Source of the DNA: Candidatus Thorarchaeota archaeon
GTDB taxonomy: Archaea > Asgardarchaeota > Thorarchaeia > Thorarchaeales > Thorarchaeaceae
Reading direction: 5' to 3'
Length of the DNA: 64,000 bases
NCBI GenBank assembly: GCA_048882325.1
Contig: JBHLRS010000008.1
Coordinates: 34,056-98,055, forward strand
In this document: positions 6,951 through 34,125 of the stretch, piece after piece
Position numbering within the stretch: the first letter of the stretch is position 1
Layout: every line of letters begins with the position of its first letter
Program-made: the position numbers and the translations under genes
Notes under the pieces: model-generated
What the model saw: only the letters and a program-made list of their open reading frames with translations
Databases searched by the model: none
What the model was told of the DNA's origin: nothing

Positions 6951-7637
6951 TCAGGTCATCTTCGTATCCCAATAATCTATCTCCGTGATTGATTTATTGA
7001 TAGGTAGTGCAACGTTCCAAATAGTCGTTGCACCAATCTCAACTTTCTCTCTAGGTGCATCATGAAGATGTCCATGTATAATGGCGTTTGGAGGATACTG
7101 ACTCACTGCTTCTGCGACCCACCATGTATATTCACTTGGTCTTGTTTCTTGAAGAGGACTAAAGTGCATTAACAGAATGACAATGTTTCCAGATCCTTTT
7201 GCACTTCGTAGAAGGCGTTTAAGCTGCTTTGCCCGTTCTTCGAAGACACCTCGGATTTCAACGGATGATTCTGAAGAAAGATTTGAGACCACAACTGACA
7301 TCCCTATTATGGTGACACTTGACTTTGCAATCGTGATCGTGACAGAGTCGTCATCCAACAGTGTAACTCTTCCTTCTGTCAGAGCAGCTAATTCGTCTCG
7401 ATGAATTGGAGGGTCTTCATTCCCAAAACACGCAATGAGTGGAACATCTTGACCAAATTGCACCTCAACAGCATCTAGAACATTTGTGTATTCATCGATT
7501 TTTCCACGGTTGATCATGTCGCCTGCAAAGAGGAAGAGATCTGGTTTGTTGCATTTTGAGAGTGCCAAATTAAATTCATTCAGATATCGCGGACAATGAA
7601 CATCCGCAATTGCAGCAATTCTAATTGGGTTCATCAC
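6951..7637 (-). CDS. Calcineurin-like metallophosphoesterase (paralog 2)
   Basis: ADVH, AGD, GNED, MH, HGHLH. Confidence 0.85.
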   Translation of the reverse strand: MMNPIRIAAIADVHCPRYLNEFNLALSKCNKPDLFLFAGDMINRGKIDEYTNVLDAVEVQFGQDVPLIACFGNEDPPIHRDELAALTEGRVTLLDDDSVTITIAKSSVTIIGMSVVVSNLSSESSVEIRGVFEERAKQLKRLLRSAKGSGNIVILLMHFSPLQETRPSEYTWWVAEAVSQYPPNAIIHGHLHDAPREKVEIGATTIWNVALPINKSITEIDYWDTKMT

Positions 7638-24651: not shown

Positions 24652-25791
24652 TTGTCCGAAGACGTAATATGCCTTCAGACGAACGACCGAAAAGCCAGCA
24701 GTCAGTGGGGAAGAAAGTTGGGTGATAATAAGGAATTCATAGAAACAGTAACCCTCACCACTCCGGAACAGGTTCCAACAGAGAGAGTAAGCCAGTACTC
24801 TGTGGTGACTTTTGCAACTGAATTTCTTCAACGTCTCAGAAGATATGATGTCCTGAAAGTGCAGATGAATGAACGCGGGTTAGAATTTGGAGGAAGAGTT
24901 TTACTGATAGGACCTTCGGGTACTGACTTTGGAGCCTTTCCACACTTTCTTGCGCGGGAGGTACCAGTCAAAATCATCCGTTTCAAAATGGAGGGTTTTT
25001 TTGACGAGAACAAAAGGAGTAATGCTGCACTAAGAGAAGGGTTTGAGTTCGCAAGACGAAACTCACCCGCTTTGCTCTATATAGAGAAACTCGAGGCACT
25101 TGCACCAAGAGATTCAGTGCAGTCAATTGTGTTTCAAGATGAACTCAAGACCACAGGATGGAGTGGGGAAGAAGTGGTGGTGGTCACTGCTACAACACGA
25201 CCTGAAAAGGTTGACAGGGAACTCCTTGCACTGTATGATAGAACCTACATTGTAGAAGGTACAACCATAGACGACCGGATTAGGATTCTTGAACAAGTCC
25301 TGAAAGACCGTGATGACATTGATGTGACGACTATAGCAGAGCTTACTGAGGGATGGGGCTTTTCCGATATAACCCATCTCGCAACAAGTCTCTACATGCA
25401 AGAACCATCAGAGGGTGGTGAGATGCCGCGAGATATGATCGAGGAATTGATTGAACACAGTCGTGTAGGAGCTTTCGGTGATTCCAAGTTCCTTGATTCA
25501 GTCGTAAGAAAGACTAGGGGTACTAAGCAACCTGAAATTAGTAAGTTGAGTGAAGAATATCCGGATGACTTTCTTGATCAGCTGTACTTGATGGCGGTCG
25601 GGGATGATTATTCAGAAACTCAACGTGTGATTGAGGTCCTTAATGAAGGACTACCTCTATCAGCAAAAGACAGGGAGTTTCTTAGTAGGCATCCATTCCT
25701 CTTAACTGGAACCGCAGAGGACAGACTGACGAGGCTCCTTAGAGCAAAGAAAAGCAGCGATAGACTTCATAGGATAATGGGAAGACAGTAG
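24652..25791 (+). CDS. Degenerate (probably inactive) classical AAA+ domain protein; start uncertain
   Basis: GRVLLIGPSGTDFG, ARRNSPALLYIEKLE, ATTRPEKVD, TEGWGFSDI follow the CDC48/FtsH-type AAA layout. Confidence 0.75.
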   Translation: MSEDVICLQTNDRKASSQWGRKLGDNKEFIETVTLTTPEQVPTERVSQYSVVTFATEFLQRLRRYDVLKVQMNERGLEFGGRVLLIGPSGTDFGAFPHFLAREVPVKIIRFKMEGFFDENKRSNAALREGFEFARRNSPALLYIEKLEALAPRDSVQSIVFQDELKTTGWSGEEVVVVTATTRPEKVDRELLALYDRTYIVEGTTIDDRIRILEQVLKDRDDIDVTTIAELTEGWGFSDITHLATSLYMQEPSEGGEMPRDMIEELIEHSRVGAFGDSKFLDSVVRKTRGTKQPEISKLSEEYPDDFLDQLYLMAVGDDYSETQRVIEVLNEGLPLSAKDREFLSRHPFLLTGTAEDRLTRLLRAKKSSDRLHRIMGRQ

Positions 25792-28700
25792 ATGAGTGAA
25801 ACGAAGGTAAATATCGAATCAGTGAGGTTGGGAAATTTCCTGTCCTTCTACGAAGGAACCGTTGAGTTTGACAAAGGGCTCACTGTATTAGCTGGTCCTA
25901 ACGGATCCGGAAAAACCTCAATCTTCCATGCAATGAAATTTGCCCTTGGATCAAACCAGAGAGAGAATCGATACAGCAAATGGAGTGACTTTATCAGACA
26001 TGGAGCGAGCACAGCCGAAGTGGAAATAAGAGTCAGGGTGAACGGTCAGAGTCGCAAATTCCTTAGACGAATTGATAGAGATGGCATCCCACGAGCATAT
26101 ACAGATGGACGCCGTGTCAAGGCTGCAGAACACAAGCAGATGATTAGTGCACTTGGTCTTGAAACTGACAATCCTTTGGTCTTTATGCCTCAAGAAAGAA
26201 TTAATGCTGTTCGAGATATGGACCCATTTGAGGTCAGACGCTTGGTGGAAGAGGGAACGGGCCTTGATATTCTCAGAGATAGAATTGGATTACAAGAAAC
26301 TGAGGTGACCCAGAGTCGACTCAAACTGGAAGCAGCATTGACAGAGTCTAGAACAGTTGAACGAGAACTCGAACTTCTACAACACGATCTCTCTCGGTTA
26401 GAAAAGAAGAGAGCTTTACAAGAACAAGAAAGGGAGCTGGAACAGGAGCTAAAGTGGGCCAGCTTTGATGACCTATCAGAGAGAATTCGGCAGACAAAGG
26501 AGGAGATAGAAACAAAGGAGTCAGGACTTGTTGGCGTTCTTGAAGAGCAAACGACCATTGAAGGACAAATCTCAGAGCAGGAAGAAGTGAGTTCTGAGCT
26601 GGAAAGTAATCTCTCGGGCTTACAGACAGAGATTGGTAGAATTGATGCGAAAATAGAGGAAGAAGAGAAGAATCTCGCGAAACTCAAAGGTGACTCCAGA
26701 CAGCAAGTGGCTGAGCTAAAGCAACTTGAAACTAGTATCAAGTCTGAAAAGAGTAAAGAGGAGAAACTCAAAGAAGATCTGGAACGTGTTTCAGCAGCTA
26801 GGGAGCAGTATATGGACCAGCAGAAGATGCTCCGCGAGGAAATAGCAGAGCTAGAGGACGAGCGAGCGAGAATACGTGATGAACTCGCTGCATTCGCAGA
26901 GTGGAACACAAAAAGAGCAGAGGCACATGGGCACTATAAGGCACTTCAAGTAGAGATTGAGGGCAAAGACCTACTGACGAGAAGCCTTCGTGAAAGACTC
27001 CAGGTTGAGGAGGCTGAACTTCAAGCAATAGAAAGCAAGTGGTCACACGTATGGGATAAGATAGAGGCTACAGATGCCAAAGAGTTGGAGCGAAAGAAAT
27101 CACAACTGGAAAGAGAAATCGCATCTCTCAATGAAGAACGATTCAGAAAGACGAGTCTTGTTGCACAACTACAGAAAGACATTGATGATATTAAGGTCAG
27201 ACTGTCTGAAACTTCAAAGCGCATCCCAGAGTCTGTGAGAAGTCTTAAGGAAGCAGTTTCCGAACACAATCTAGAAACTGTTAGGGGTCCACTGATTAGT
27301 CTCTTCACAGCAAATGATGATATTTCAGCGGCCGTGGAAGGAGTCCTCTCAGGTAATCTTCCACTCGCCTTTGTCACCACAGAGTACTCTGACTACCAGC
27401 TTCTCCTCAAACTTCGCAACAAAGAAGAAGCTCCCGCGCCAGTAATCCTACTGAGAGAAGAGGTGAGCAAAGAGAGACCGGATATACCTCAAGGGGCAGG
27501 TGTTGAGGACTGGTTGTGGGACAGACTCAACGCAGACCCTGATGTTCAGAAGCTTCTAGCAAGGGTGTTTGGAGATTTCATACTAGTCAAGAATTCTCAG
27601 ACAGCATCAAGACTTGCGACAAAACATAATCTTAGAGTTGTTACTCTCGATGGAGCAGTCACAATTCCAGATGATACCCAGGTTGTCAGTCACCCTAAAA
27701 GTGAGCCATCAGGAATGGTTTCAACCGCACCACTTCAAACCAGATTGGCAAAGATGGAGAAGGATCTTACGTTTGAACGAAAGAAAGTCACTGAGATAAT
27801 GACGAAACTTGAAACTCTTTCAAATGAACGTGAGGAAACAATGGACCTGATTAGTCAGATGACACGGTGGGGGTCAACATGGGAGCGACGTCGAAAGCTC
27901 AACGAGAGTATTCCGGAGCTTGAGGAACGAATTGTTTCCATCGATGATGAGCTGAAGACTCTGCAACGCGACTATGGCAAAGCGGAAAGAAACCTAAGAA
28001 AACTCGACAGCACACAACCTCCTGAACGGAGTAGATTGGTGGGACAAGAGGCTGCTATCAGGACAAAACACAGACGTCTTCAGAGTGACCTCAATAAAGT
28101 TGACACAAAGGCCCATGCATCGGAAAAGGACGAGGAACTCAAGCGACAAGAATTGAGGAGAGTCAAAGAGAATATCACTGTCCTGTCAGACAGCCTGACG
28201 GATCTACGTCAGGAGATTAAGGATTCAAAGGATGCAACATCATCAATCCTAGAAAGAATCGAGGTGATGCGTGAGGGTAGAGAAGAAACACACAATAGAC
28301 AGATTCAGATTAAGGAAGAGCTGACCCAGATACGATCAACAACTCGAACATTGAGTGAGCGATTAGTCGAACTGAATCTTCTCATTAAGAACCGTAGACT
28401 CGAAGTACTACAATCGAAAAGGCAACTTTCAAACCTAGAATATGACCTTGAATTGATAGAGCAAGAGCTTCAGGGTAAAAATCGACCAGAGAGTGTTCGA
28501 GCTATTGATCTCGTCAGGAGTGAACTCGTAAAGCTTAGACATATCTTGGATGACTATCAGGATGTTTCTGAAACAGTGGCTCACACAGAGAACCAATTGA
28601 AGGACAGACTAAAGGAACTTGTCGAGCGTGTTGCAGAGCTGGGTGAGGAACTAGATGAGGCTGAGTCTGCTGTACGTAACATCAAGGAGCAGTACCACAA

Positions 28701-29160
28701 TGGAATGAATGAAACACTTCGGAAAGTAGAGAAGGGAGTGAATGAGGTTTTAGGACGAGTCCAGTTTCCAGGGAGTGTTAGATTCGAACTCGCACTGAGA
28801 GATGGCAGGTATGGGGTTGAGTTCAAGTCGAGAATCAAGACTGAGGGTTTTGGTTCAATCAGTGCAGGTTCAGGCGGCGAAAGGTCTCTCATCGCAATCG
28901 GATTAATTTTAGCTCTCCAGGGTTTTAATCCTGCACCAGTGTACGTAATGGATGAGGTTGATACATTTCTAGATGCAACAAACACCGAGCTGGTCAGTCG
29001 ATTATTTCATGATGCGTCACGTCGCAGTCAATTTATCATTCTCACACCTGCAAAGAGTACCCACTTGTTGAAACATGCTGACAAAATCCTTGGGGTTGTT
29101 TCACCTAATGGAGTGGATCCTTCTGTGATTATTGAGAGTCCTAAGTTCAAAGCGCAATAG
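25792..29160 (+). CDS. smc: SMC ATPase, SMC5/6-like
   Basis: GPNGSGKT, DNPLVFMPQERI, two long coiled coils around hinge RGPLISL..AAVEGVL..AFVT, SGGERS, VMDEVDTFLD. Confidence 0.92.
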   Translation: MSETKVNIESVRLGNFLSFYEGTVEFDKGLTVLAGPNGSGKTSIFHAMKFALGSNQRENRYSKWSDFIRHGASTAEVEIRVRVNGQSRKFLRRIDRDGIPRAYTDGRRVKAAEHKQMISALGLETDNPLVFMPQERINAVRDMDPFEVRRLVEEGTGLDILRDRIGLQETEVTQSRLKLEAALTESRTVERELELLQHDLSRLEKKRALQEQERELEQELKWASFDDLSERIRQTKEEIETKESGLVGVLEEQTTIEGQISEQEEVSSELESNLSGLQTEIGRIDAKIEEEEKNLAKLKGDSRQQVAELKQLETSIKSEKSKEEKLKEDLERVSAAREQYMDQQKMLREEIAELEDERARIRDELAAFAEWNTKRAEAHGHYKALQVEIEGKDLLTRSLRERLQVEEAELQAIESKWSHVWDKIEATDAKELERKKSQLEREIASLNEERFRKTSLVAQLQKDIDDIKVRLSETSKRIPESVRSLKEAVSEHNLETVRGPLISLFTANDDISAAVEGVLSGNLPLAFVTTEYSDYQLLLKLRNKEEAPAPVILLREEVSKERPDIPQGAGVEDWLWDRLNADPDVQKLLARVFGDFILVKNSQTASRLATKHNLRVVTLDGAVTIPDDTQVVSHPKSEPSGMVSTAPLQTRLAKMEKDLTFERKKVTEIMTKLETLSNEREETMDLISQMTRWGSTWERRRKLNESIPELEERIVSIDDELKTLQRDYGKAERNLRKLDSTQPPERSRLVGQEAAIRTKHRRLQSDLNKVDTKAHASEKDEELKRQELRRVKENITVLSDSLTDLRQEIKDSKDATSSILERIEVMREGREETHNRQIQIKEELTQIRSTTRTLSERLVELNLLIKNRRLEVLQSKRQLSNLEYDLELIEQELQGKNRPESVRAIDLVRSELVKLRHILDDYQDVSETVAHTENQLKDRLKELVERVAELGEELDEAESAVRNIKEQYHNGMNETLRKVEKGVNEVLGRVQFPGSVRFELALRDGRYGVEFKSRIKTEGFGSISAGSGGERSLIAIGLILALQGFNPAPVYVMDEVDTFLDATNTELVSRLFHDASRRSQFIILTPAKSTHLLKHADKILGVVSPNGVDPSVIIESPKFKAQ

Positions 29161-29173
29161 GAGGCGAGGAATC

Positions 29174-29833
29174 ATGAATGAAACTATGAGCCTTGCTGAA
29201 AGCGTGTTCAATATGGTGCAAGCAGTTCGCGCAGGTGAGATTGATCCGCTGGAAATGCGATTGACTCAGGCATACAAGAACCTCCAGGAACTGGTTGCCA
29301 AGATTGACAGGCGGATTGACATAGACGAGATGTTAAACGAGATTCTTAGTACAAAGGTGGATCGAGTGCAGGAGCTTGCACGTATTCTTGCTGCACCTGA
29401 ACTATATGTCAGCCGACTCAAGGATATCTCAATGAGAAACCTCGCAAAACTCGTGACACCGAAGCAACCTGTCGTTATCGGACATCTTGATCACGAATCA
29501 CTTGATGATGCCCTCAACCGAGTGGTGACATTAATCGATGCAATGCAGAGAGAGCCTCCTGAAGACGAGGTCCCGAAGATAGCAGAACTTCCCAATGGTT
29601 TTACACTCGATACAGAAGACTCCGTGTTTTTAGAGGACCTAGACAGTTTTCTTGCTACAATCCCAAATGGCGACAGAACAGAGTTTGATGACCTTGTGAT
29701 GAATGAAGAGCTCGATCTTTTTCTGAAACATTTCCTTTACGTGGTCATCCTAGTTTCAAAGGGAAGACTGAACTATGACCCAGAAACTCGCGAAGTCTGG
29801 AGACCCTCAGTCTCCGAGATTGATATGACATAA
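29174..29833 (+). CDS. Kleisin (ScpA/Nse4-like)
   Basis: N-term VRAGEIDPLEM (ScpA-like GEIDP), C-term winged helix FDDLV..FLYVVILVSKGRL; 13 nt after smc. Confidence 0.75.
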   Translation: MNETMSLAESVFNMVQAVRAGEIDPLEMRLTQAYKNLQELVAKIDRRIDIDEMLNEILSTKVDRVQELARILAAPELYVSRLKDISMRNLAKLVTPKQPVVIGHLDHESLDDALNRVVTLIDAMQREPPEDEVPKIAELPNGFTLDTEDSVFLEDLDSFLATIPNGDRTEFDDLVMNEELDLFLKHFLYVVILVSKGRLNYDPETREVWRPSVSEIDMT

Positions 29834-29840
29834 AAAAAGG
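29831..29840 (-). terminator. Oligo-T tract after the MFS gene
   Basis: T7 on the minus strand 18 nt after the MFS stop. Confidence 0.4.
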
Positions 29841-29856
29841 AGGTCTGCTTGATTTC

Positions 29857-31197
29857 TCAAGCAGGAACCTCGACTAGGAACTCTTGTGAAATATCTGACT
29901 CTTCATCAACTGGTTTTGATAAACCTGCGTGAAGATTCAGTTTGGAAACAACTATGAAACCTAGGAGTGAAACTAGTACAAGTACGAGAGCTGCGCTTGT
30001 CATAGGGGGTCCTGTTGCTGCGACAGTCTCCGCCCAGACTCCGCCAATAGTCATTCCAACAACTTGCAGAGCAGTAAAGACTAAACTTAGGAGTGAGAAG
30101 ACACGTCCTCGAAGTTCATCCTCAACAAGCTCTTGCATGAGTACGTTAAGGGGAATAATCAGAACTACATCCACTGCACCAATAATTGCCCAAGGTAGCA
30201 TAACTGTCACAAAGTCAAATGCAAGGACAAGTCCCAAGATCGCAATACCAGCCAAAAATTCTGCAAATACTACCAGATAGAGAGGTCTATCGATCTCTCT
30301 CTTGCGACTGAAGTAGACTGCCGCAGTGGCTCCTGAAGCAGCTCCTGCACTCAACACAAGACCGACCTGGACTGAACCCAAACCAAGCTCACCCTCTAGG
30401 TATGGCATGAGCAGAGCGTTCAAAATACCCGATGACACTGCAAGGAGCATTGCAAAGACAAAGAGGAATGACAGAATCGAATTTCCAATGACGTAGCGAC
30501 CGCCTTGCTTTATCTGTGCCATCAAGGACTCCTTGTCATCTAGATCTCTATTCGGGATGAGATTAGTCCTGATTCCACGAAGTGCAAGTGCAGAGAAAAG
30601 GAAAGTTGCAGAGTTAATGGCGAACGCGAGGAAATAATCTGGGGCAAGGAGTGCAACGAGAATTCCACCGATTGGAGGGACTACCAACTGAACAACTTGG
30701 AATGTCATCTGAGAGAGAGAGTTCGCTGCTACTAACTCATCACCTTCTACGAGATTGGGGATTGCTGCACTCCTTGCAGGAAAGAACCATGCATTTGCAG
30801 TAGCATAGAGAAATGTGAGTAAGTAAACCCAATAGATTGTTGGCATAGATGTGGGGAAATAAATTGTGAGAGGAATGAGTAGAATTGTGATTGCTCGTAC
30901 TACATCTGATGCAACCATGATCTTCTTGCGGTTCCATTGATCAATATAGACACCAATGGGACCAGCAAAAACAACAACAGGTAATGTCTGAGCAATGGCA
31001 AGAAGCGCCATGGATATGGCAGAGCCTGTTAGGTCGTAGGCATAAAACATGAGAGCAAGATATGCAATCGCTGTTCCAATGTTAGATACTAGTTGACCAG
31101 ACCAGAGCAATGAGAAGTCACGATGAGCTAGAACTGCTCTGAATCCTTTCGGATCATCGTGACTTTCACTTTGAAGTTCTGTGACGACTTCGGTCAT
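29857..31197 (-). CDS. MFS transporter, DHA3/MefA-like
   Basis: LLWSGQLVSNIG, GVYIDQWNRKKIM (motif A), PARSAAIPNLV, ELRGRVFS; about 12 TMs. Confidence 0.9.
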   Translation of the reverse strand: MTEVVTELQSESHDDPKGFRAVLAHRDFSLLWSGQLVSNIGTAIAYLALMFYAYDLTGSAISMALLAIAQTLPVVVFAGPIGVYIDQWNRKKIMVASDVVRAITILLIPLTIYFPTSMPTIYWVYLLTFLYATANAWFFPARSAAIPNLVEGDELVAANSLSQMTFQVVQLVVPPIGGILVALLAPDYFLAFAINSATFLFSALALRGIRTNLIPNRDLDDKESLMAQIKQGGRYVIGNSILSFLFVFAMLLAVSSGILNALLMPYLEGELGLGSVQVGLVLSAGAASGATAAVYFSRKREIDRPLYLVVFAEFLAGIAILGLVLAFDFVTVMLPWAIIGAVDVVLIIPLNVLMQELVEDELRGRVFSLLSLVFTALQVVGMTIGGVWAETVAATGPPMTSAALVLVLVSLLGFIVVSKLNLHAGLSKPVDEESDISQEFLVEVPA

Positions 31198-31202
31198 TCA
31201 GT

Positions 31203-31301
31203 TTATCTCCGGAAGTAAGCACGGGCCACTGCATCAGTGGAAACGACATTCCTTGTCTTCTTCCAAACTCGAGGAGTTCCATTGATCTTTGCAAGTGCCA
31301 T
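31203..31301 (-). CDS. Small peptide 2: MALAKINGTPRVWKKTRNVVSTDAVARAYFRR (32 aa)
   Basis: Manual translation; GGAGG upstream of its ATG; homologous to peptide 1; stop 5 nt before the MFS ATG. Confidence 0.75.
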   Translation of the reverse strand: MALAKINGTPRVWKKTRNVVSTDAVARAYFRR

Positions 31302-31306
31302 TCGAT

Positions 31307-31408
31307 TTACCTCCGATAGGTGTACGCATGAGTAATGGCATCGGTGGAGACCATTGCCTTGTTGTTCTTCAGCACAGATTTAGTTCCTGAGTTAGTTGTT
31401 AAAGCCAT
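31307..31408 (-). CDS. Small peptide 1: MALTTNSGTKSVLKNNKAMVSTDAITHAYTYRR (33 aa)
   Basis: Manual translation; TATA-like box about 33 nt upstream; 16 identical positions with peptide 2. Confidence 0.75.
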   Translation of the reverse strand: MALTTNSGTKSVLKNNKAMVSTDAITHAYTYRR

Positions 31409-31440
31409 GATATTTCACAAAAATCACTGCTCAGATTTAG

Positions 31441-31448
31441 TATATATA
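31441..31448 (-). promoter_or_regulatory. TATA box for the peptide1-peptide2-MFS unit
   Basis: TATATATA 33-40 nt upstream of ATG 31408. Confidence 0.55.
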
Positions 31449-31524
31449 GCGGAGCCACTTCATAGGGTCACAGAAAGAAGTCACATATTGTTACTACTCA
31501 TAGGAAGCAGGTGGTAGAAAAATC

Positions 31525-32307
31525 ATGACGAAGTCGATACTAATTGATGAGAAGACCTTGCAAGTATTTGCTCACTTTGAAGAGTTCTACTTCAATGCGT
31601 TTGGTCAACAGAAAGTACCAAACCCTGCTTACAAGAATAGACTCTCCAAGTTCTTCGAGATTATCAAAGAGAATCACAGCGAAGAGGAACTGGTTGTTGG
31701 ACCAATAACAAGGGAAAACCTGGGAGATGCTTTATGTTTAGTTATATTGACAAGAATTCACGCTTTTTCAGAGGATGAACTGAGGGCGACAGTCGATTTC
31801 CTGCAAAACCCAGAACACAGTCTCCTGTTAATGTCTAATCATAATCCGTTTGAGATGCACGATAACGAACTTACAAGCAAGTTGGGAATATCACTGACAG
31901 GAGGATACTACAGTGGTGAAAGAGGAGTGTATACAGAGATCAGTGAAGATTGCATGACACATCATCCGATAATCGAAGGAGAAGAGTCTGAGAAACCAAT
32001 CTCTAAAATTCTAACAAACACAACCTGCCGTATTGAATCAAAACTTGGCACTCCATTCATCTACTTGCCAGATACAATGGTTGGTCGGTGGTCTTCTGAA
32101 GGTGAGTCGCCACTACGAAATAGAATCTTCGGACTTGCTATTGACGGTCAAAAGGAGCCTAATGAGATTATCAAGGGAAAAGTAATTGTCCTCGGTGATT
32201 CTGGATTTTTAGGAGACAAGGATTCAACATTTCCTGGATTTGGAATGATTGATAGGGGTGACAATGAGATATTCATACAGAGGATGTTCCGATACCTCTT
32301 GGACTGA
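31525..32307 (+). CDS. Hypothetical protein, GIFT/DUF4350 (GATase-like) fold candidate
   Basis: FSEDELRATVDFL, GKVIVLGDSGFL, DNEIFIQRMFRYL. Confidence 0.55.
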   Translation: MTKSILIDEKTLQVFAHFEEFYFNAFGQQKVPNPAYKNRLSKFFEIIKENHSEEELVVGPITRENLGDALCLVILTRIHAFSEDELRATVDFLQNPEHSLLLMSNHNPFEMHDNELTSKLGISLTGGYYSGERGVYTEISEDCMTHHPIIEGEESEKPISKILTNTTCRIESKLGTPFIYLPDTMVGRWSSEGESPLRNRIFGLAIDGQKEPNEIIKGKVIVLGDSGFLGDKDSTFPGFGMIDRGDNEIFIQRMFRYLLD

Positions 32308-32396
32308 TTGCAAAATCGTGGCGCTCTTCTGCAATTCTTCTAACAGAAACCCTCATACTTTAAACAACAACTAGTTTTGAAAGACTGTTGGACATA

Positions 32397-32558
32397 ATGA
32401 ATGAGTATGCTATCCTCATGAAGGTCCTAAGGAGATCTGGAGACCCCATTGGTGAAGGAGTAGAGGACATGCTTGATGCTCTAGGTCTACCAGATGACAT
32501 AGGAAGAGAAACCCTATTCAGGAGAATGAGAGTGCTATACAAACGATTTGATGCCTAA
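32397..32558 (+). pseudogene. Truncated 53-aa duplicate of the KITE-like gene N-terminus (remnant or expressed mini-protein)
   Basis: MNEYAILMKVLRRSGDPIGEGVEDMLDALGLPDDIGRETLF...; 36/53 identical to the ORF starting at 33196. Confidence 0.8.
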
Positions 32559-32630
32559 CAGATATTTTCCAGCAAATTCATCACTATGAAAACTTCAATA
32601 TGAAGCCAGATTCGAGATGTCGATTGAAGA

Positions 32631-33098
32631 TTAATTCTCCTTCTGTTCTCTCGATGTTTCTTTCCTACCTGAAGTTGGTTTGGCAATGTAGATTTGACGT
32701 GAAATAGCCATTCCTAAACACCAACCTGCAAAGAGTGTCAGAAGAATCAACCACCAGATAGGATCTACCAACCCCGAAACTTCATCGATTCCTGCGAGAG
32801 TATCAGCTAACTCACTTGTGATTAGAAGACACATGATGAAAGCAATCAATCCATAACTTGGACTGAACTTGCAATCCTGTTGCGAAACAGCGTCATCCCG
32901 GAAAGTGAAGTATTCGACTAAACCACCAAAACCGACGAAAATCAGTTGCAAGGCTATAAACATCATAAAGAGAGATGAATCTATCAATAGAAGAAGCAAG
33001 ACTCCTGTACAAAATATTGCACAAAAAACGACTGCTTTGACTCTTTCATGTTTGATATCAAATTGCCTACTGGTCATGATCCCACTCAGGAAACACAA
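32631..33098 (-). CDS. Small 4-TM membrane protein
   Basis: Four hydrophobic segments. Confidence 0.6.
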   Translation of the reverse strand: MCFLSGIMTSRQFDIKHERVKAVVFCAIFCTGVLLLLLIDSSLFMMFIALQLIFVGFGGLVEYFTFRDDAVSQQDCKFSPSYGLIAFIMCLLITSELADTLAGIDEVSGLVDPIWWLILLTLFAGWCLGMAISRQIYIAKPTSGRKETSREQKEN

Positions 33099-33195
33099 TC
33101 TGTGATTGGCCTCTATTTTACCTTTACGCGGCGCGCTTCACACAAAGGGACCTCACACTTTATACAGGCTCAGATGATGATGAACAGTGTTTCAG

Positions 33196-33699
33196 ATGAA
33201 CGAGTATGCCATTCTGATGAAGCTCCTCACAAGAGCAGGAGACCCAATCGGCGCAGGTGTCGATGACATGCTTGATGCTCTTGGGCTACCTGAAGACATA
33301 GGACGAGATGTGTTATTCAAGCGACTTGGTGAACTCCACTCAAGACTTGAACCAGTTGGCCTCACCATAAAACACAATCCCGTGAGTGGTGTGTTCTATG
33401 TTGACACTTCAATCCAGTCTAAGATGCAAAAGGACGATTCTGTACTCCCAGACAAATTGGCGGCAACTCTTCTTATTGTCATCACTCTGGCCTATCAAGA
33501 GGGTGGATGGATTTCCTTTGACAGAGTAAGAGAGTTTCGTAAAAAGAGCTTGAGAGGAGTCATGGAGGACCTAAGAGATCTTCAGAAGCTAAACTATGTT
33601 GAGCTAGACCAGCCTAGTAAGCGGGTTCGACTAGGTCTTCGTGTTCCATTTGAGATTGACTATGAGGCATTCTTTAGAGACCTTGTATCTGAGAGTTAG
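33196..33699 (+). CDS. Tandem winged-helix KITE-like protein (ScpB/Nse1/Nse3-like)
   Basis: Two WH-like halves: LHSRLEPVGLTIK..FYV, then ATLLIVITL..GGWIS..LQKLNYVE..RLGLRVPFEID; near smc-kleisin. Confidence 0.6.
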   Translation: MNEYAILMKLLTRAGDPIGAGVDDMLDALGLPEDIGRDVLFKRLGELHSRLEPVGLTIKHNPVSGVFYVDTSIQSKMQKDDSVLPDKLAATLLIVITLAYQEGGWISFDRVREFRKKSLRGVMEDLRDLQKLNYVELDQPSKRVRLGLRVPFEIDYEAFFRDLVSES

Positions 33700-33765
33700 C
33701 TCCAATTGTTCGGCCCCTTCGTTAGTTTTATCAAGGCACCATCTGTGAAAAACTCGGTCGGAATC

Positions 33766-34125
33766 ATGTCACACAGACGTTCACTAAGATTCGCAAAAAC
33801 GACCTGCCCTATCTGTGGCAGCAAGGAAGTCGCCCGTGACGATCACAAGGGAGACCTCCTCTGCACAAACTGTGGACATATCATTGTCCGAACAGAAACC
33901 AGATCTGTAGGTAAGTTTGACATTGCTCAACATATCAAGAGGAATGGAAAGATGACTTTCCCGATGCTCAAGTCAGCCACAGGGGCCTCAGACGACAAGC
34001 TCTTCGGTGTTTTACGAAACATGGTTGAGATGGGACTGCTCTCTGAGATTCAAGGACAGTACTCACTCACCAAGAAGGGAAATAGATGGTACCGTCAGAG
34101 GCAGGGACAGGAGTGGGGTTACTAG
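33766..34125 (+). CDS. TFIIB-type zinc ribbon + winged-helix protein
   Basis: CPICGS..DDHKGDLLCTNCG; LRNMVEMGLL..YSLTKKG. Confidence 0.75.
   Translation: MSHRRSLRFAKTTCPICGSKEVARDDHKGDLLCTNCGHIIVRTETRSVGKFDIAQHIKRNGKMTFPMLKSATGASDDKLFGVLRNMVEMGLLSEIQGQYSLTKKGNRWYRQRQGQEWGY

Follow-up and report, generated by a model that had tools for sequence, protein, structure and literature searches.

An undescribed multicopy family of predicted micro-proteins in Thorarchaeota, apparently coupled in translation to an efflux pump

A 64,000-nucleotide (nt) stretch of a Candidatus Thorarchaeota genome (GenBank assembly GCA_048882325.1, contig JBHLRS010000008.1, positions 34,056 to 98,055 of the forward strand; here called the window) carries on its minus strand two short open reading frames (ORFs), A and B, immediately ahead of a gene for a predicted efflux pump of the major facilitator superfamily (MFS). 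Sequence comparison firmly supports A and B as real, translated micro-protein genes under selection, and it places them in an undescribed, multicopy micro-protein family that is found only in one taxonomic family of Thorarchaeota. Gene A (31408-31307) comprises 33 codons and a TAA, begins with MALTTN and ends with STDAITHAYTYRR; gene B (31301-31203) comprises 32 codons and a TAA, begins with MALAK and ends with STDAVARAYFRR; and the ATG of the pump gene (31197-29857; 446 amino acids [aa]) stands 5 nt past the stop codon of B. An earlier, sequence-only reading of this DNA had described these three genes with a TATA box ahead of them as a pump-specific system with two peptide genes. Its coordinates, sequences and spacings were exact on re-reading and the peptides do precede the pump, but the system it drew was too narrow, since the window holds one locus of a lineage-wide, multicopy family.

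The two peptides align over their whole length with 16 identities in 33 positions (BLASTP E 6e-9), and several of the residues that they have in common are encoded by different synonymous codons, both as the sequence-only reading had claimed. The resemblance goes well past what chance would give. A and B match a 93-member family profile at E 5e-17 and 2e-17, respectively. Members of the family are recognized by a length of 28 to 36 aa, MAL at the N-terminus, a middle part that is both basic and variable and, at the C-terminus, the motif S-T-x-A-[ILV]-x-x-A-Y-x-x-R(R). Members stand in tandem behind a shared promoter block, nearly always an A-type (with THAYTYRR or AYxTVVR at its end) ahead of a B-type (with AYFRR or YMYR at its end), with stop-to-start gaps of 4 to 7 nt, and the window locus, with A-type A, B-type B and a gap of 5 nt, fits this arrangement. 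The number of peptides in tandem varies from 1 to 4. Fusion of A and B by stop-codon readthrough or frameshifting was ruled out, as gaps of 4, 5, 6 and 7 nt all occur.

Searching the same genome with A gave eight matches, and the profile then gave 9 to 10 copies, which are spread over five loci (contigs C8, C18, C14, C31 and, weakly, C27). All 24 genomes of the genus matched the family profile, as did 68 of the 85 genomes of the taxonomic family, or 77 of the 85 with the broader 93-member profile, while none of 314 genomes from other families of the phylum (Asgard) matched. Copy number ranges from 3 to 14 per genome, and the roughly 500 copies in 78 related genomes are all open frames of about 35 codons free of internal stops. 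A mobile-element origin of the loci was ruled out, each locus type being syntenic across species.

A collection of called genes comprising 15 billion proteins contains neither A nor B, indicating that gene callers missed them, in agreement with the earlier statement that both ORFs lie below gene-calling thresholds; a few of their homologues are called as proteins there, none of which bears a name. Pfam returned for A and B only DUF6275, at an E value of 0.02 and below the cutoff, NCBIfam and PADLOC gave no match to either, the best score of an ESM Atlas search with the peptides was an uninformative 0.76, and a full-text literature search found no description of the family. A profile search of 1.8 billion proteins gave only short family members apart from long, multi-stretch matches, which were rejected as chance motif matches to translated clustered regularly interspaced short palindromic repeats (CRISPR). 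These public-collection "proteins" (P0002, P0004, P0011, P0015 and P0018) are translated CRISPR arrays whose repeats read ISTHALTWSAT, FQLTRSRGAR or FNSRAHVERD; depending on the frame, such repeats give ISTHALTW.AT or FQLTRSRGAR, and they match short motif profiles spuriously.

The case that A and B are coding comes from codon analysis. When 22 A-type sequences of equal length were compared pairwise, differences at codon positions 1, 2 and 3 amounted to 0.21, 0.18 and 0.37, respectively, and the ratio of nonsynonymous to synonymous differences per site (pN/pS) was 0.49; for 20 B-type orthologues the corresponding values were 0.31, 0.21 and 0.55, with a pN/pS of 0.41. The codons of the core residues S21, T22, A24, A28, Y29 and Y31 are never or almost never altered at positions 1 and 2, and their third positions differ in 37 to 76% of pairs. 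That the core codons vary only at their third positions argues for selection on the peptide and thus for translation. Two parts of the genes are in addition constrained at the nucleotide level, namely, codons 1 to 6 of A-type genes, a continuation of the promoter and 5' block, and the terminal Arg codons. The N-terminus of B (MALAK) is kept at the amino acid level. The sequence-only reading had proposed a dN/dS comparison and a search of orthologous loci for conserved small ORFs; the first is answered by the pN/pS values above, and in the second, small ORFs stood upstream of the orthologous MFS gene in every Thorarchaeota species examined, with no frame breaks and with conservation at the amino acid level, so that the conditions which it had named for its own refutation do not hold.

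The last codons of the peptide genes appear to do double duty. A ends in CGG AGG TAA (31315..31307, minus strand) and B in CGG AGA TAA, so that the two Arg codons and the stop together spell GGAGG and GGAGA, respectively. Of 99 family members, nearly all close with (C/A)GG-AGG/AGA-stop or GTG-AGG-stop, which spell GGAGG(T) or GAGGT(G)A, although these Arg codons are uncommon in the genome, where CGG accounts for 8% and AGG for 15% of the Arg codons in long ORFs. Pentamers resembling a Shine-Dalgarno (SD) site are enriched about tenfold genome-wide and begin 12 to 13 nt before ATG starts, and in A the closing GGAGG starts 13 nt ahead of the ATG of B. By its position, the terminal GGAGG of A sits at the SD distance preferred in this genome and is the putative SD of B, and the CGG AGA TAA of B likewise carries the predicted ribosome-binding site of the pump. 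The earlier suggestion that the RR codons also form the ribosome site of the next gene is thus borne out by both the terminal codons and the SD position.

The spacing behind these sites is tightly kept. In the window, the A stop and the B start, like the B stop and the pump start, are separated by 5 nt, followed by ATG in each case. In about 30 species, the orthologous pump gene begins behind the stop of a B-type peptide, nearly always after exactly 5 nt, and roughly half of these starts are TTG or GTG. Among 29 distinct loci, the gap from the stop of the B-type peptide to the start of the orthologous pump is exactly 5 nt in 27, and the pump starts in these 29 loci are ATG (about 15), TTG (about 9) and GTG (5); in one further locus (L068), CTG is the sole in-frame candidate at that position. 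Weak pump starts are thus tolerated where the spacing behind the preceding stop is constant, as termination-reinitiation predicts, and we infer that translation of the pump is chained to that of A and B by coupling through an SD inside the preceding ORF.

Neither promoter nor terminator was seen between A, B and the pump. A terminator-like hairpin, CTGCTTGA-GAAA-TCAAGCAG, followed by a run of 7 T (29864..29832, minus strand), overlaps the pump stop codon and is the predicted end of the operon, and the three genes would accordingly be read from one transcript. Upstream of A lies a conserved promoter and 5' block (31496..31409, minus strand): in an alignment of about 45 loci, drawn from all locus classes and many species, about 85 nt ahead of the first peptide are at least 90% conserved. 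In the window, the block consists of an inverted repeat, TAGTAACA-ATA-TGTGACT (31496-31479), the sequence CTGTGACCCT (31473-31464) and a TFB-recognition element with TATA box, GTGGCTCCGCTATATATAC (31458-31440; the TATA box itself, TATATATA, at 31448-31441), with about 32 nt from there to the ATG of A, in which there is no SD site. The consensus of the block is an inverted repeat, AGT(A/C)ACA-N3-TGTGACT, a CTGTGACCC box, GTGGCT(T/C)CGC-TATATATAC and an initiator region leading into ATGGCTCTAACAACTAAC. Judged by archaeal promoter architecture, on which the assignment rests, the block is probably a promoter with a factor-binding repeat; the family loci would share a regulator, and the 5' leader of A would be short and free of an SD site.

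Shortened versions of this block (TAGTAACAnnnTGTGACCCTA...GTGGC..CGCT.TATATAC) occur elsewhere in the same genome, at C5:7395-7438, C28:37115-37158 and C5:50306-50323 (all minus strand). The genes behind them are not micro-ORFs but encode a GNAT-domain protein of at least 921 aa, a bactofilin-domain protein and a 369-aa protein of no assigned function, which suggests that the regulon may be wider than the family.

The transporter gene is predicted to encode an efflux-type MFS protein of the DHA3/Mef/EntS-like kind. It matches Pfam MFS_3 (E 1.1e-32, 113.6 bits against a cutoff of 27) and MFS_1 (E 1.1e-29), and NCBIfam TIGR00900 (2.A.1.21) at E 2.6e-64 and 217.8 bits, which is below the curated cutoff of 319.6; the next-best family matches are EntS, Mef(A/B/C), Tap and Tet(V), at 1e-13 to 1e-22. 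Orthologues of the pump were found in 37 loci, with a B-type peptide ending immediately before the pump. Every Thorarchaeota orthologue of at least 55% identity has family peptides upstream, even in genomes whose divergent peptides escaped the genome-wide search, and distant MFS paralogues (26 to 27% identity) have none. The dependence is one-way: pump orthologues always come with peptides, while most peptide copies have no adjacent pump.

The other loci place the peptides in varied company. The pump locus itself interrupts an SMC operon, separating the kleisin gene from the KITE-like gene, and exists in a short form, A-B-pump, as in the window, and in a long form, in which a family peptide (A2) is followed by a conserved noncoding element, D, a divergent family peptide, B and then the pump. 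At two syntenic positions (8 and 7 loci in genomes of this genus), A and B are instead followed by a third, unrelated micro-ORF, C, of 34 to 38 aa and ending in EVLxLEAT, with an oligo-T terminator directly after it. In a fourth arrangement, found at a second locus of this genome, three family peptides and D precede a 520-aa MFS_1 protein encoded farther downstream, and in a fifth, A2 and D stand ahead of a GNAT-domain protein. The family is always first in its operons, before varied cargo comprising two kinds of MFS, a GNAT-domain protein and the C-type micro-ORF.

Retention of LEAT in C through synonymous changes makes it look like a real gene. C-type micro-ORFs were observed at C18 38700-38800 (L077:5698-5802, minus strand), on C31 (L079) and in loci L012-L039, where the A-B pairs have no pump. 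Element D spans about 60 nt and separates a family peptide from the downstream cistrons of long-form operons, with copies in this genome at C14 ~25030-25125 (L078:6948-7099) and C5 ~7290-7360 (both minus strand). It reads TGGTCACAGAG TGGTCACAGAAC TGGTCAGnnAG TCTCAGAAACAGCATATCnTGTGACC, comprising three direct repeats of about 11 nt and an inverted GGTCACA/TGTGACC, and is invariant at the nucleotide level. An ORF of 39 to 45 codons running through D was rejected as a further peptide, since the frame in which D is read differs between species and is broken by a stop codon in the C5 copy. No covariation was found in D, which may be either an RNA hairpin or a protein-binding array.

As for their physical character, the 93 family members have a median pI of 10.6, a net charge of about +4.6 and a median grand average of hydropathy (GRAVY) of -0.52; only 1 of the 93 contains Cys, and no hydrophobic run exceeds 5 residues. 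A and B are about 3.6 kDa each, without a signal or leader sequence. AlphaFold, given the family alignment, predicts a single helix over residues 6 to 31 with a moderate mean per-residue confidence score (pLDDT) of 70, highest over the conserved motif. Conservation across residues 18 to 33 showed no significant helical periodicity (its value was reached by 2297 of 10000 shuffles), and an argument from a buried helix face was therefore dropped. The 271-nt leader RNA has a minimum free energy of -62.6, against a mean of -62.7 for shuffled sequences (z 0.02), and hence no excess stability; no alternative or sequestering structure was detected in it, and a search of window positions 28500-33000 against Rfam gave no family match, only a sub-threshold microRNA hit.

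The reading we favor, at somewhat short of an even chance, is that A and B are products in their own right, namely, small basic proteins acting in trans. Ribosomes would load at A and pass by termination-reinitiation from A to B and on to the pump, so that the pump would be made only when B is translated to its end, and in proportion to it. The peptides would bind a larger putative partner, either a protein or RNA/the ribosome, and would be coregulated with the efflux pump, to which they would be tied stoichiometrically in the window. The same A-B pair heads peptide-only, terminator-bounded, syntenic operons, which argues that the peptides are products in themselves; this, together with conservation of both termini of B at the amino acid level, is why we prefer action in trans, and A and B are probably not a dedicated leader peptide of this pump. 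Several observations weigh against such a role. The strongest conservation is a contiguous motif of 9 to 12 residues adjoining the stop codon and the length of the peptides is about that of the ribosomal exit tunnel, so that a nascent-peptide mechanism acting in cis would fit these two features equally well; the constant first place in the operon ahead of varied cargo resembles a portable leader cassette; and conservation lacks the periodicity of a helix.

A cis-acting leader cassette is accordingly the alternative to be taken most seriously, although we regard it as on the unlikely side. Here the nascent motif ST.A(I/L/V)..AY..R(R) of A and B would contact the exit tunnel and, when a small molecule is present or translation is under stress, delay termination at the stop codon, and the held ribosome would cover the SD and the start 5 nt on, thereby gating reinitiation on the pump, the acetyltransferase or the C micro-ORF. 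Concentration of conservation in the last 12 to 13 residues next to the stop, the length of 28 to 36 aa and the promoter-proximal position, translationally coupled to varied downstream genes, all agree with this mechanism, as do the weak TTG and GTG pump starts, which tie expression to upstream translation, and the long-form operons, which put a conserved noncoding element between peptide and cargo. The pump, moreover, resembles the DHA3 group (Mef, Tap, Tet(V) and EntS being among its relatives), and some bacterial members of that group, including mef, are controlled by leader peptides. However, the A-B-C operons end in terminators after peptides only, the MALAK terminus of B is conserved as amino acids too, tandem peptide number varies from 1 to 4, and the peptides contain no arrest motif of known type. 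Nor does the RNA help, the leader folding no better than shuffles and covariation not having been found, and a stall in this geometry would lead to repression, not induction. The tandem leader-peptide (ribosome-stalling) switch offered by the sequence-only reading is not established: no alternative RNA structure was found, and A-B pairs also head operons made up of micro-ORFs only.

A bolder version of control in cis, which we hold to be unlikely, is that the A/B family is a portable archaeal "sensor leader" whose C-terminal motif makes the ribosome dwell at the stop codon on a metabolite or translation inhibitor, the dwell gating termination-reinitiation on the following cistron, be it one of the efflux pumps, the acetyltransferase or the third micro-protein. 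If true, no gene switch controlled by a nascent peptide would have been described in archaea before it, and its host lineage would be the one nearest to eukaryotes, whose upstream ORFs (uORFs) for conserved peptides share the logic.

More doubtful still is that A and B are secreted as a cationic signal or antimicrobial, modified or not, with the MFS protein as exporter or as the producer's immunity pump. Tandem, paralogous, leaderless, cationic peptides of about 30 aa next to an efflux-type transporter would suit this role, and a second locus of this genome also has an MFS gene downstream. Yet the peptides are hydrophilic, without an amphipathic or hydrophobic core, are not Trp-rich and almost always lack Cys; no modifying enzyme, ATP-binding cassette (ABC) transporter or immunity gene was seen at any locus; the family is conserved, in synteny, as part of the core of almost every genome in the lineage and is not a strain-variable accessory cluster; and most copies have no transporter. 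The established substrates of DHA3 pumps are small molecules, not 3.6-kDa peptides. The second suggestion of the sequence-only reading, a cationic peptide with a dedicated exporter, is therefore likewise not established, given a GRAVY of about -0.5, the lack of a signal or leader sequence and a majority of pumpless copies; its remark that no enzyme modifying ribosomally synthesized and posttranslationally modified peptides (RiPPs) is visible nearby agrees with ours.

That the ORFs are incidental to a conserved promoter, operator or structured leader is hardly credible, for although the promoter block and the first 6 A-type codons are conserved as nucleotides, synonymous sites included, the terminal Arg codons are constrained as SD and element D is conserved in long-form loci regardless of reading frame, variation across the core motif is confined to third positions in both A and B types, hundreds of copies retain intact frames and a conserved length, and there is neither an Rfam match nor excess RNA stability.

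In the window, the operon runs on the strand opposite to its flanks, which are the SMC and kleisin genes (25792-29833) on one side and the KITE-like and Zn-ribbon/winged helix-turn-helix genes (33187-34125) on the other, and this gene order around the peptide-pump operon (25792-34125) is kept in 16 to 18 other Thorarchaeota loci. A 56-codon ORF on the plus strand (32388-32558) shares 69% identity (E 4e-25) with the N-terminal part of the KITE-like protein of 170 aa (33187-33699) and looks like a truncated duplicate of the 5' end of that gene.

Eukaryotes have no closer known relatives than the Asgard archaea, whose small proteome and translational control are almost unexplored. The present family is lineage-wide, multicopy, strongly selected and headed by one nearly invariant promoter, and it was wholly missed by standard annotation, so that it gives a concrete set of unannotated genes for Thorarchaeota annotation. 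On the sequence evidence, it also offers what would be a clean natural example in archaea of termination-reinitiation from an SD within an ORF, with near-cognate starts, and a candidate either for regulation by trans-acting micro-proteins or for uORF-like control by nascent peptides.

The family is undescribed in the databases and papers searched, but the theme, micro-proteins or uORFs coupled to a transporter, is already known. As in the leader-peptide systems of bacterial resistance genes, among them the DHA3 pump mef(E)/mel as well as erm and cat, very short ORFs here lie immediately upstream of the gene, a Mef/Tap/Tet(V)-related MFS, on what would be one transcript, and downstream expression would depend on their translation. 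A and B are indeed short ORFs directly upstream of the gene that would be regulated, but they are not found only as leaders of a larger gene, since the A-B-C operons end in oligo-T terminators. Unlike those systems, which have one short leader and alternative hairpins, the locus has two homologous ORFs of 32 to 33 codons and would be coupled through an SD in the last codons and a fixed 5-nt gap; the family also stands alone in peptide-only operons, and its host is an archaeon. TnaC and the fungal arginine attenuator peptide, examples of termination-dependent arrest peptides and conserved-peptide uORFs, share with the family a conserved peptide of 20 to 35 aa whose conserved part lies next to the stop, where a held ribosome would obstruct the start codon behind it. 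There is, however, no common motif, the present family is not confined to leader positions, and arrest is hypothetical here.

Among bacteriocins, aureocin A70 (aurABCD) and enterocin L50A/B are likewise tandem, paralogous, cationic peptides of about 30 to 44 aa with no leader sequence and with a transporter nearby. Those peptides are amphipathic or hydrophobic, and the clusters encoding them vary between strains and include ABC transporters and immunity genes, whereas A and B are hydrophilic, lineage-wide (77 of 85 genomes), syntenic and mostly without a transporter, and thus do not have the features of leaderless multi-peptide bacteriocins. RiPP precursors are accompanied by a modifying enzyme; none was seen among the neighbors of the family loci, which differ from locus to locus and include SMC/kleisin, KITE-like, GNAT and glyoxalase genes and the like, although such an enzyme may be encoded in trans.

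Also comparable are the small proteins that modulate transporters in bacteria, as in AcrZ-AcrB, MntS-MntP, MgtS-MgtA/PitA and SgrT-PtsG. A and B differ from the membrane helices AcrZ and MgtS in being soluble and basic, are multicopy and paired, and have no sequence similarity to small-protein modulators. In both cases, however, the proteins are shorter than 50 aa, stand beside or are coregulated with a transporter and were missed by annotation, and as these modulators act in trans, so, we propose, would A and B.

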